Source of the DNA: a virus
Lineage: Duplodnaviria > Heunggongvirae > Uroviricota > Caudoviricetes
Virus record (IMG/VR): IMGVR_UViG_2718217715_000004
DNA: 21,792 bases
Reading direction: 5' to 3' (one strand)
In this document: positions 8,690 to 9,463 of the stretch, piece after piece
Layout of the letters: each line of letters starts with the position of its first letter
Numbering within the stretch: the first letter of the stretch is position 1
Program-made: the position numbers and the translations under genes
Notes under the pieces: generated by a model
Database searches by the model: none
Told to the model about the DNA's origin: nothing
What the model saw: the letters and a program-made list of their open reading frames with translations, nothing else

Positions 8690-8765
8690 TTTAACGTATG
8701 TCGCCAATTTCCTGATGAAGGTGACTGGCGACTTGCTGTTGTATGTCCTTCTCAGAAAATTGTTT

Positions 8766-8794
8766 TTGAATAACAAATAACAGGATTTTATAAT
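8766..8794 (+). promoter_or_regulatory. Near-consensus sigma70 promoter (-35 TTGAAT, 17-nt spacer, -10 TATAAT) for the acetyltransferase moron
   Basis: Hexamers read at 8766-8771 and 8789-8794 inside an AT-rich block, about 50 nt upstream of the CDS start. Confidence 0.5.
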
Positions 8795-8845
8795 CTCTTA
8801 ACCTTATAACATGTGTGGTCTGAAATAATAATTAAGGAGATTATC

Positions 8846-9418
8846 GTGCTATCTTACTTAATGGCAATTCACTTTGTTTTATTTGGAAACTCTACTAATT
8901 TAAAAAACTTCTGGAAACATGAAGTAATTCGGCGGAAACGTATGGATATCTGGAGGCTTTTAAGAGAGAAAAAGCAGCGTAACCGGAATTTCCTTTTCTG
9001 GTGGCGGTTGGCTAACGAAATGTATATTAATGGTAATAAATTACATAAGAAAGCAGCCAAAAAGTTAAACAGTAAAATAATTAACAAGTTTGGTTGTGAA
9101 ATAGGATTGGGCGCAAATATTGGAAAAGGGTTGACAATTCCCCATCATGCTGGAATTGTTGTTCATTTTGCTGTTGATGCGGGTGAAAATCTGGTATTAC
9201 GACAGAATACTACCATTGGACAGATAGATGGTGATATGCCTAGTTCAAGAGTAAAAATTGGTAGTAACGTTGATATCGGAGCTAATTGTTGCATCATTGG
9301 ATTATCACGTAAAATTGGGGATAATGTAAAAATAGGTGCAATGTCTTTTATAAATAAAGATATACCATCAAACTGCACATATATAACTAAAAAGAGTGGT
9401 GTTGTATTGTATAAATAG
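8846..9418 (+). CDS. Hexapeptide-repeat (left-handed beta-helix) O-acetyltransferase, serine-acetyltransferase/WcaB-like
   Basis: Tandem [LIV]G-x4 repeats GCEIGLGANIGKGLTIPHHAGIVV...RVKIGSNVDIGANCCIIG...IGDNVKIGAMSFI; strong SD AAGGAGA 5 nt before GTG 8846 (ORF track starts at 8813); AT-rich by eye. Confidence 0.7.
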   Translation: MLSYLMAIHFVLFGNSTNLKNFWKHEVIRRKRMDIWRLLREKKQRNRNFLFWWRLANEMYINGNKLHKKAAKKLNSKIINKFGCEIGLGANIGKGLTIPHHAGIVVHFAVDAGENLVLRQNTTIGQIDGDMPSSRVKIGSNVDIGANCCIIGLSRKIGDNVKIGAMSFINKDIPSNCTYITKKSGVVLYK

Positions 9419-9426
9419 AGTACATA

Positions 9427-9463
9427 AAGCCATCGATATTTCTGTCGATGGCTTTTTCTTTTT
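9427..9463 (+). terminator. Rho-independent terminator after the acetyltransferase gene
   Basis: 10-bp stem AAGCCATCGA / TCGATGGCTT, 8-nt loop, followed by TTTTTCTTTTT. Confidence 0.7.

Follow-up and report, generated by a model that had tools for sequence, protein, structure and literature searches.

A self-contained acetyltransferase gene in the Z/fun-type slot of a decayed P2-like prophage of Escherichia coli O157:H7, with an envelope glycan as candidate acceptor

Introduction

What does an acetyltransferase gene do directly behind the last tail gene of a P2-like prophage, and which molecule does its product acetylate? We addressed these questions in IMG/VR virus record IMGVR_UViG_2718217715_000004, of which a stretch of 21,792 nucleotides was analysed (hereafter, the window). 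Roughly a tenth of complete E. coli genomes, O157:H7 strains among them, carry this gene under the name 'serine O-acetyltransferase'. Its product almost certainly has another substrate than serine, and left-handed beta-helix (LbH) O-acetyltransferase without an assigned acceptor would be a better name. Our overall reading, to which we assign a probability of about 0.5, is that the gene is a lysogenic-conversion moron in a tail-fibre-proximal hotspot whose product O-acetylates an envelope glycan. In other respects, this is a typical case of cargo carried at an established P2 hotspot.

The gene lies behind an inverted tail operon

The host element is an IS-decayed P2-like prophage of E. coli O157:H7 located between tRNA-Leu and yecA, which we take to be the element called CP-933T. 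The literature found on CP-933T consists of genome-wide lists, with nothing attributable to the acetyltransferase gene, and searches for transcript data gave no result. The gene is preceded by the tail gene gpU (8195-8689, + strand; Pfam Phage_P2_GpU, E 1.5e-38; 46% identity to P2 U), the last of the FI-FII-E-T-U operon. The next gene 3' of U beyond the cassette is tfa (9462-9987, - strand; Caudo_TAP, 2.6e-40; phrog_105, 4.1e-65), a convergent tail-fibre assembly (chaperone) gene that is homologous to P2 G. The 5' end of tfa is cut off by IS629, and the full 579-nt gene is present in relatives L001 and L004. Where tfa breaks off lies an IS629/IS1203 copy of the IS3 family (9988-11300, + strand; NCBIfam transpos_IS3, 2.9e-94; RefSeq annotation in L002), beyond which the remaining tail-fibre, baseplate and head genes are missing. 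A second copy just upstream of FI (1733-3045, - strand; annotated in L002) forms a 1313-nt arm that is 96% complementary to the first.

The preliminary description placed the cassette where gpD and ogr should be. P2 indeed has D after U, and tblastn searches found no D or ogr homologue anywhere in the window. However, the acetyltransferase gene does not replace them. In the intact relatives (L004, L099 and L100-104), D and ogr lie upstream of FI in divergent orientation, and the FI-U operon points toward the tail-fibre operon. D and ogr are on this FI-upstream side in L001, L004 and L099, and the site that they occupy in intact relatives is taken here by the IS629 copy at 1733-3045. The FI-U operon is naturally inverted in this prophage lineage, so that U is followed by the 3' end of the tail-fibre operon. 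We also considered whether the junction between U and the acetyltransferase gene is the breakpoint of a recent, aberrant inversion that truncated D. This was rejected because diverged prophages share the arrangement and because L004, L099 and L100 encode an untruncated D, with a single HSP that covers P2 D residues 15-378 and a Phage_GPD product of 381 aa.

Homologues of the gene are found at the equivalent place in both operon orientations. In P2-like prophages with the canonical gene order (L105-108), the space between G and FI is occupied by a homologue of 67% identity that is encoded on the opposite strand, and prophages with an inverted F operon and intact D have a 71%-identical homologue between U and tfa. 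In the lineage of the window, inversion of the F operon places the slot between U and G, and not between G and FI. The contents of the U-to-tfa junction vary, with an invertase and a second fibre set in L099 and an added methyltransferase in L100. The acetyltransferase gene is convergent with tfa and lies between tfa and the sheath-tube operon, as expected for the Z/fun slot, which has been named P2 moron position 2 or the fun hotspot (PMC3573123; PMC9519451; bioRxiv 10.1101/2024.10.15.618418). That this is a functional moron acetyltransferase in a Z/fun-type slot is highly probable. Neither the hotspot paper of Rousset 2022 nor a 2026 NAR paper on P2/P4 defence hotspots (PMC13586616) mentions acetyltransferases.

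The cassette is AT-rich and has its own terminator

The unit directly 3' of gpU had been described as AT-rich and self-contained, and all its elements were recovered. The cassette (8742-9461, + strand) has a GC content of 33% versus 54% in the FI-U operon, and a third-position GC (GC3) of 0.29 versus 0.56. Sequence matches to cassette-free prophages end at about 8695. Right after U, outside the cassette, there is a hairpin (8692-8741, + strand; dG -21.2 kcal/mol, z -5.1) that is possibly the end of the F operon; at the matching position, L100 has a hairpin of another sequence.

The cassette leader (8742-8845, + strand) holds a promoter-like site and a Shine-Dalgarno sequence. A sequence scan identified the sigma-70 promoter-like site TTGAAT-17-TATAAT at 8766-8794, with 10 of 12 consensus matches and at a sensible distance from the gene. 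The near-consensus sequence described earlier is present, but such matches are found at the chance level: in the AT-rich DNA between 8500 and 10100 we observed four promoter-like sites versus 3.7 +/- 2.1 in shuffles, so that the match by itself is not above chance. Of the 104 nt of the leader, 99 are the same in L100, versus 70% identity in the coding sequence of L100. This near-identity reflects a block that was recently shared rather than independent conservation, which makes the conservation of the promoter hexamers uninformative. The Shine-Dalgarno sequence AAGGAG (8834-8839) is strong, as had been proposed, and lies 6 nt 5' of the GTG start at 8846. The RefSeq start agrees with this codon, and the P1-like homologue has an ATG at the equivalent codon.

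The acetyltransferase ORF (8846-9418, + strand) encodes 190 aa that form a helical N-domain and a left-handed beta-helix. Between the convergent acetyltransferase and tfa genes lies an intrinsic-terminator hairpin (9426-9455) with a 13-bp stem followed by TTTTTCTTTTT, the U-run being on the + strand. It is as strong as the preliminary description suggested (dG -18.1 kcal/mol, z -5.2 on the + strand, with none of 200 shuffles as stable; dG -16.1, z -6.0 on the - strand), and L105 has a hairpin of a different sequence at the equivalent terminator site. Foreign composition, variable occupancy of a fixed slot and an own terminator are all present, which supports the view of the unit as a self-contained, compositionally foreign cargo gene, i.e., a moron.

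The enzyme has the fold of serine acetyltransferases and lacks their substrate residues

The protein was described as a hexapeptide-repeat acetyltransferase of the serine acetyltransferase/WcaB type, and profile, PDB and structure searches all bear this out. It matched phrog_2154 (2.9e-87), and its best NCBIfam matches were EpsC (2.3e-21), CysE (4.8e-17) and WcaB (1e-14), each under its cut-off. A profile built from 31 homologues retrieved 22 solved serine acetyltransferases first from the PDB (best E 6.5e-24), and Foldseek searches with an AlphaFold2 model (pLDDT 80) gave only serine acetyltransferases as top matches, with TM scores of 0.6-0.7. Although Pfam Hexapep by itself remained slightly under the cut-off (24.4 versus 27), the profile matches to LbH enzymes and the superposition of the model on serine acetyltransferases place the protein in the LbH superfamily.

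This resemblance raises the alternative that the protein is a true serine O-acetyltransferase, an auxiliary metabolic gene product that boosts or deregulates cysteine synthesis. The RefSeq product name says as much ('serine O-acetyltransferase'; the UniProt entry from a cluster look-up is A0A0H3JG20), and among solved structures the nearest matches are without exception CysE enzymes. However, the scores fall far short of the family cut-offs, at 62.4 versus 210.65 bits for TIGR01172 (CysE), 36.6 versus 397 for PRK11132, 54.4 versus 194.65 for WcaB (TIGR04016) and 76 versus 150 for EpsC, so that placement by profile searches is closest to EpsC/CysE/WcaB at scores well below family level. No Pfam match to a SATase_N domain, which includes D92 in E. 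coli CysE, was found in the protein, whose N-domain spans about 80 aa versus about 140 in CysE, and the alignment to CysE begins only at CysE residue 114.

We then compared the active site in an alignment of 31 family sequences with the E. coli CysE sequence, whose residue numbering checks out. The catalytic dyad is retained: H100, which corresponds to the general base H158 of CysE, is kept in 30 of the 31 sequences, and the position of E85, corresponding to D143 of CysE, is always acidic (D in 16 sequences, E in the other 15). The serine-binding residues D157, R192 and H193 of CysE are replaced by P99, S134 and R135, respectively, and all three columns are variable. The C-terminus (...VVLYK) is without the CysK-binding tail of CysE. 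Among the homologue neighbourhoods examined, none has a cys gene context, and the relatives are carried as cargo by phages, plasmids and islands rather than being serine acetyltransferases of core operons. The protein is thus very probably not a serine acetyltransferase, and the metabolic alternative is very unlikely.

The gene is widespread and under purifying selection

As the surrounding prophage is defective, with a frameshifted T, a truncated tfa, two IS copies, and head and baseplate genes as well as D and ogr missing, the acetyltransferase gene could itself be in decay and without function, as a remnant of a dead prophage. Several observations argue against this. Family members range in length from 188 to 196 aa, which makes the 190-aa ORF normal; two apparent fusion homologues of 269-278 aa (P0037 and P0038) were rejected as over-extended start calls. 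With H100 and the LbH domain present, the protein is not a degraded fragment, and dN/dS values of 0.07-0.19 in six pairwise comparisons reveal purifying selection. The preliminary description had called for the distribution of the unit across strains, and of 5426 complete E. coli genomes, 510 contain the entire unit. The 20 genomes that matched best, most of them O157:H7, have 100% identical copies, and isolated phages also carry homologues. We therefore regard decay of the gene itself as highly improbable.

An envelope glycan is the candidate acceptor

The product is predicted to be a soluble, acetyl-CoA-dependent O-acetyltransferase of the CysE/WcaB fold that is presumably trimeric, in which the putative general base H100 and its partner E85 are kept and the residues for serine specificity in CysE are lost. 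The hairpin after U would separate the cassette from the tail operon, and with its own promoter-like leader and strong terminator the cassette should be expressible from a repressed prophage. The enzyme may then act on the cytoplasmic side of the membrane and O-acetylate a sugar in an envelope glycan precursor, with the lipopolysaccharide (LPS) core or O-unit, enterobacterial common antigen, colanic acid and capsule as candidate acceptors. This would alter the cell surface, including phage receptors. The preliminary description had proposed the acetylation of surface polysaccharide, which is plausible and our best guess, and we give an envelope glycan as the acceptor slightly less than an even chance. 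A point against it is that the O157 O-antigen is not known to be O-acetylated. If an envelope glycan is acetylated, there would be widespread, unrecognised surface or antigenic variation in Shiga toxin-producing E. coli (STEC) and in the hosts of P1-like plasmids, which could alter phage susceptibility and be relevant to phage typing and therapy.

Several characterised systems resemble parts of this picture. NeuO, encoded by prophage CUS-3 of E. coli K1, is an LbH O-acetyltransferase of the polysialic acid of the K1 capsule that protects against K1 phage (PMC3046976; PMC13001214). Like NeuO, the enzyme studied here is soluble, prophage-borne hexapeptide-repeat cargo and acetyl-CoA-dependent, this activity being predicted. 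However, it belongs to another LbH subfamily, as NeuO was absent from the 60 best PDB sequence matches. NeuO is phase-variable by heptanucleotide repeats, whereas no tandem repeat that could serve as a phase-variation tract was found within 8650-9500, and the acceptor of NeuO is established, whereas that of the present enzyme is a candidate glycan. The neaT gene of prophage phi-b0847 in CFT073 shares the slot, as it lies between G and FI on the strand opposite G, and is likewise a single AT-rich (~30% GC) acyl- or acetyltransferase gene with its own promoter, which is putative in our case (PMC3573123). Unlike the soluble LbH enzyme, NeaT is a membrane protein (Acyl_transf_3, PF01757) of unrelated fold and has a demonstrated virulence phenotype, and none has been reported for the acetyltransferase gene. 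The WcaB/EpsC-type enzymes, which gave the best NCBIfam matches, have the same short helical N-domain and LbH in about 160-190 aa and act on sugars, not serine, with a serine acetyltransferase fold. They differ in that our gene scores far under their equivalog cut-offs and stands alone among phage tail genes, with no polysaccharide cluster. CysE shares the overall fold and the catalytic Asp/Glu-His dyad, but differs in its SATase_N domain, its Asp157, Arg192 and His193, its CysK-binding tail and in the mobile-element context of the present gene.

In P2 itself, the equivalent slot between G and FI contains fun(Z) (15675-17261, minus strand), which is also non-essential lysogenic-conversion cargo, but its sequence is unrelated and Fun(Z) blocks T5. 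As defence systems are over-represented in the Z/fun slot of P2-like phages, the acetyltransferase could instead be an anti-phage defence gene that does not act via a surface receptor, for example by acetylating a phage or host molecule during infection. We know of no LbH acetyltransferase defence system, and none of the 5027 PADLOC models (PADLOC-DB v2) matched the protein, even at E<=1. The cassette is single, self-contained and widely exchanged, and its slot is a reported second defence hotspot that holds fun in P2 and yielded three systems in a functional selection (PMC9519451); the other P2 hotspot also holds defence genes (PMC9122126). However, partition genes, toxins, the acyltransferase neaT and methyltransferases are found in these hotspots as well, and we consider a defence role of this kind unlikely.

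The gene travels with a tail-fibre module

The gene that we read as a glycan-modifying moron is linked to the neighbouring tail-fibre genes beyond the P2-like prophages. L004 and the P1-like phage JL22 share a 1.8 kb block with 93% identity, which comprises the acetyltransferase gene, tfa and about 640 nt from the 3' end of the fibre gene. In JL22, the block lies inside a segment bounded by 602-nt inverted repeats beside cin (the invertible C segment), with the acetyltransferase gene downstream of S'-U' and co-oriented. The JL22 paper assigns the gene no role (PMC9603915); apart from this statement, literature searches on the family gave a table entry for the Citrobacter phage phiNP and no experimental study. 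In Buttiauxella, a homologue is convergent with a tail-fibre gene, and in Xenorhabdus, one is paired with a family-25 (LPS-type) glycosyltransferase between an integrase and baseplate/fibre genes. In total, homologues adjoin tail-fibre genes in five separate phage backbones.

The tail-fibre linkage of the family is not universal. A scan of genome contigs placed at least about a dozen loci in the family, and the matches listed were mostly distant LbH enzymes. Homologues without fibre neighbours were found next to hok at the edge of a prophage, on the bfp plasmid of EPEC, adjacent to the integrase of an island and alone in chromosomes. Among 14 more distant relatives, tblastn searches with P1 and P2 proteins detected no P1 or P2 gene within 6 kb in 13, and gave a weak tfa-like match in the remaining one (L017).

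Co-inheritance with the fibre tip and chaperone invites a more specific interpretation, namely that the gene is a receptor-matched immunity gene whose product acetylates the glycan receptor of the co-inherited fibre tip. The unit would then move between P2-like prophages and P1-like phage-plasmids, and its expression would switch with the fibre type in invertible segments. We consider this proposal improbable. If it were true, myovirus tail fibres would have a general type of cassette that pairs a receptor-binding protein with a receptor-masking enzyme. The tight linkage to an exchangeable module of fibre tip and chaperone makes the receptor idea cheaply testable.

A related alternative is that the gene works with its linked fibre tip and chaperone to the benefit of the phage and masks the receptor of that particular fibre on lysogens or lysing cells. 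Its purpose would be superinfection exclusion or the protection of progeny, and in P1-like elements expression could follow the orientation of the segment. The shared block in P2-like and P1-like elements, its position inside the Cin-invertible segment of JL22 and the adjoining fibre genes in five backbones all fit this alternative. However, the linkage may simply mean that a permissive insertion slot lies beside a recombination-prone module, and other family members are found away from fibre genes. We consider a phage-serving role quite unlikely. The P1-like phage Ro157c2YLVW has the same module and its record gives STEC O157 as the host, which argues weakly against simple masking of the receptor of the linked fibre in O157.

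A defective P2-like prophage carries the cassette

At its left end the window has pgsA (1-549), followed by tRNA-Gly/Cys/Leu (701-1002), and at its right end a tyrosine integrase (20791-21792). E. coli O157:H7 strain 4276 matches the segment 8100-10050 (1,951 nt) at 100% identity; the remainder, from pgsA to the integrase, is collinear gene by gene with the annotation of that strain. This match in sequence and annotation identifies the window as the defective P2-like prophage lying between leuZ and yecA. We take the leuZ-yecA prophage of O157:H7 to be CP-933T, or O-island 76.

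Two inverted IS629/IS1203 copies (1313 nt, 96% complementary) enclose 6.9 kb containing FI-U, the acetyltransferase and a truncated tfa. The left copy lies at 1733-3045 on the minus strand and the right copy at 9988-11300 on the plus strand, where it cuts the 5' end of tfa. The pair resembles a composite transposon or an invertible segment. In E. coli O157:H7 PV15-279 the IS copies are placed differently, within T, so by this sequence comparison prophage decay varies among O157 strains. The tape-measure gene T (5349-8188) consists of two overlapping frames (5349-7475 and 7352-8188) and is labelled 'frameshifted' by RefSeq in a strain identical to the window; the split gene is added evidence for a defective prophage. 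The prophage lacks its head, baseplate and fibre genes beyond the right IS copy, between tfa and stbB. The low-GC stretch (0.37-0.42) from tRNA-Leu to the left IS (1003-1732), whose sole gene is a truncated hypothetical (partial in RefSeq), is probably the remnant of a prophage end that still holds hok and ogr in PV15-279.

A self-contained unit in a known cargo slot

After gpU (8195-8689, Pfam E 1.5e-38) and a hairpin at 8692-8741 (dG -21.2, z -5.1), GC content is 0.33 over 8742-9461, versus 0.54 for FI-U. This stretch holds a promoter-like TTGAAT-17-TATAAT (8766-8794), a Shine-Dalgarno AAGGAG (8834-8839) 6 nt ahead of the GTG start at 8846, the 190-codon ORF (8846-9418) and a 13-bp terminator hairpin with a U-run (9426-9455, dG -18.1, z -5.2). 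All parts of the self-contained unit proposed in the preliminary description were thus located, with the promoter-like match at chance frequency (4 here versus 3.7 +/- 2.1 in shuffled sequence).

Compared with L100, one of five genomes (L100-104) with a 71%-identical allele, the cassette flanks are near-invariant (leader 99/104, 3' flank 44/44), though the coding sequence is only 70% identical, and the U-proximal sequence diverges upstream of ~8742. This places the cassette limits at about 8742 to 9461. The allele is a mosaic relative to L100 (6001-6573): identity is 90-93% over the 60 nt at either end and 43-68% in the centre. The divergent central portion is the left-handed beta-helix (LbH) region, lying between terminal 60 nt and flanks that are 90-100% identical in the two alleles; a cassette-style swap of this portion between conserved anchors is suggested.

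The acetyltransferase had been placed where gpD/ogr should be. The moron was real and its enzyme class correct, but the genome architecture had been misread. Its neighbour is the convergent tail-fibre assembly gene tfa (9462-9987; Caudo_TAP 2.6e-40, phrog_105 4.1e-65), and relatives keep D and ogr on the FI side of an inverted F operon. In E. coli 03_3013 (L004), strain 1449 (L099) and L100-104, ogr and D read leftward, followed by FI, FII, E, T and U rightward, a variable slot, and tfa, H, I, J, W and V leftward. D is full length in these relatives (381-aa Phage_GPD product; P2 D residues 15-378 in one HSP). In the window, tblastn with P2 proteins found no match to D or ogr anywhere, and the left IS copy occupies their position. 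From gene order, the window's lineage naturally carries the F operon in the opposite orientation to that in P2, and U is followed by the 3' end of the tail-fibre operon; this layout in less decayed relatives explains the lack of D after U.

At the same U-tfa junction, strain 1449 carries a DNA invertase and an alternative set of fibre tip and chaperone. Exactly this combination, with swapped fibres, an invertase and inverted neighbouring genes, is described for the P2 Z/fun hotspot in a preprint (bioRxiv 10.1101/2024.10.15.618418). Prophages of canonical P2 order (L105-108) have a homologue with 67% identity in the G-FI interval, encoded on the other strand from G, at the site of fun(Z) in P2 itself. 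This slot is 'moron position 2' of Wiles et al., where CFT073 carries neaT, an AT-rich gene for a membrane acyltransferase (PMC3573123), and is the second defence hotspot of Vassallo et al. (PMC9519451). The gene's slot is thus a published hotspot, and in sequence terms the cassette, with its terminator, is shown to occupy a known cargo slot. A recent aberrant inversion breakpoint at the U/acetyltransferase junction was dropped because D is full length in the relatives, diverged prophages share the layout and the hotspot is published. A non-receptor role in anti-phage defence is unlikely; PADLOC gave no match for the protein, which counts against it.

In L100 (6617-7605), an 87-aa tfa fragment and then a class I SAM methyltransferase gene separate the acetyltransferase from the full tfa; the same methyltransferase lies elsewhere between two tfa genes (H43 and H44, matches covering the tfa region only). 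Judging from these sequences, cargo has been inserted serially at the U-tfa slot.

The protein has a serine acetyltransferase fold but no serine site

The nearest NCBIfam families were EpsC (2.3e-21), CysE (4.8e-17) and WcaB (1e-14), all with scores far under the curated cut-offs, and the protein was assigned to phrog_2154 (2.9e-87), a phage family of unknown function. With a 31-homologue profile, the top matches were 22 solved serine acetyltransferases (best E 6.5e-24). An AlphaFold2 model (pLDDT 80) has five N-terminal helices followed by a beta-helix, and its best Foldseek matches in the PDB were all serine acetyltransferases (TM 0.6-0.7, 20-25% identity). These searches agree on the SAT/WcaB-type class named in the preliminary description.

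Alignment to E. coli CysE, in a reference sequence with self-consistent key-residue numbering, starts only from CysE residue 114. The catalytic pair is retained: D143 corresponds to E85 (D/E in 31/31) and H158 to H100 (30/31). The serine-binding D157, R192 and H193 correspond to P99, S134 and R135, all variable columns. The Pfam search of the protein gave no SATase_N match, and the C-terminus (...VVLYK) lacks a CysK-binding tail. Given these absences and the sub-threshold scores, the RefSeq name 'serine O-acetyltransferase', under which the gene is already annotated in hundreds of genomes, is very probably wrong; the gene has been noticed in two papers. A true serine acetyltransferase is highly improbable, since neither family cut-offs nor the serine site support it. 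The protein is very probably an SAT-fold O-acetyltransferase with an acceptor other than serine, like WcaB.

With dN/dS of 0.07-0.19, the gene is under purifying selection, which contradicts the very improbable view that it is a dead relic. A degraded fragment is also at odds with the retained H100 and the modelled beta-helix. Sequence and model together show an intact LbH enzyme under selection that retains the catalytic dyad and lacks the serine site.

Co-inheritance with the tail-fibre tip

Two P1-like phages, JL22 and Ro157c2YLVW, carry the unit from its start codon on at 90% identity. The unit also occurs in 35 PLSDB plasmids, 34 of them non-mobilisable; among the matches listed, the 14 P1-like ones are 87-105 kb. 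L004 20755-22554 and JL22 9008-10807 share 93.3% identity over a block made up of the acetyltransferase gene, tfa and ~640 nt at the 3' end of the fibre gene. The JL22 block lies within 4.26 kb flanked by 602-nt inverted repeats beside cin, the invertible C segment, with the acetyltransferase downstream of S'-U' in the same orientation. Such shared blocks show, at sequence level, that the acetyltransferase is co-inherited with the fibre tip and its chaperone. This linkage is the one basis for a role in fibre-matched immunity or the lytic cycle, which we regard as slightly less likely than defence. The module-level tie to the fibre tip and the place in invertible fibre segments provide the one testable, somewhat novel angle. 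In PV15-279 (L001 14360-15262), a macro-domain gene absent in L004 and the P1-like phages lies between the tail-fibre gene and tfa, within the shared module.

Distribution and predicted function

Of 5426 complete E. coli genomes, 510 carry the full unit. Contexts were sampled for more distant members (identities are to the window protein). A common E. coli homologue (57%) neighbours hok at one edge of a P2/HP1-like remnant beside copA. An EPEC homologue (50%; L091 5001-5594, CP042948) lies on a bfp plasmid of the EAF type, a short way downstream of the bundle-forming-pilus cluster with its prepilin peptidase and SLT genes, and has IS66 debris around it. The Salmonella homologue (64%) adjoins an island integrase; the one in Buttiauxella (67%) lies at the edge of a prophage and converges on a tail-fibre gene. 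In Xenorhabdus bovienii (50%; L112 6001-7393), the homologue and a family-25 (Glyco_transf_25, LPS-type) glycosyltransferase gene that follows it make up a two-gene unit, flanked by a prophage integrase and baseplate/fibre genes. The Obesumbacterium homologue (48%) is a lone chromosomal copy, and that of Pseudomonas (48%) has small unannotated ORFs and a CbiA/ParA-type gene as neighbours. Relatives also occur in the isolated or induced phages phiNP, ESSI2_ev015/040/129, Hafnia yong2 and vB_EcoM-613R2. None of the sampled contexts is a cys operon, so the gene still reads as something other than a biosynthetic cys-operon gene.

The WcaB/EpsC-type architecture, the Xenorhabdus glycosyltransferase pairing and the precedent of NeuO, the prophage O-acetyltransferase of K1 capsule (PMC3046976; PMC13001214), suggest that the enzyme may use acetyl-CoA to O-acetylate a sugar of an envelope-glycan precursor at the membrane's cytoplasmic face. 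The acetylated glycan would alter the cell surface and possibly phage receptors. The literature searched yielded no experiments on this family. The Ro157c2YLVW record gives STEC O157 as host although the module is present, which counts weakly against surface acetylation.

Other cargo

Plasmid-type partition genes stbB and parM (11341-12619, minus strand; Pfam 7.7e-29 and 1.8e-82) follow gene A, at the P2 tin/old hotspot; partition modules occur in about a quarter of P2-like phages (Rousset et al.). Two low-GC genes (0.35-0.40; 19758-20785, plus strand) lie between a repressor-like gene (19338-19742) and the integrase. The products are a 216-aa phrog_5825 protein that weakly matches a moron family of membrane proteins and a DUF2511 protein. 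The iLund4u preprint mentions a third P2 hotspot, to which these two genes may belong as cargo. Another cargo slot, between D and ogr in L004 (10192-13589), holds a complete His-Xaa-Ser system (hxsDBCA, with two radical-SAM maturases).
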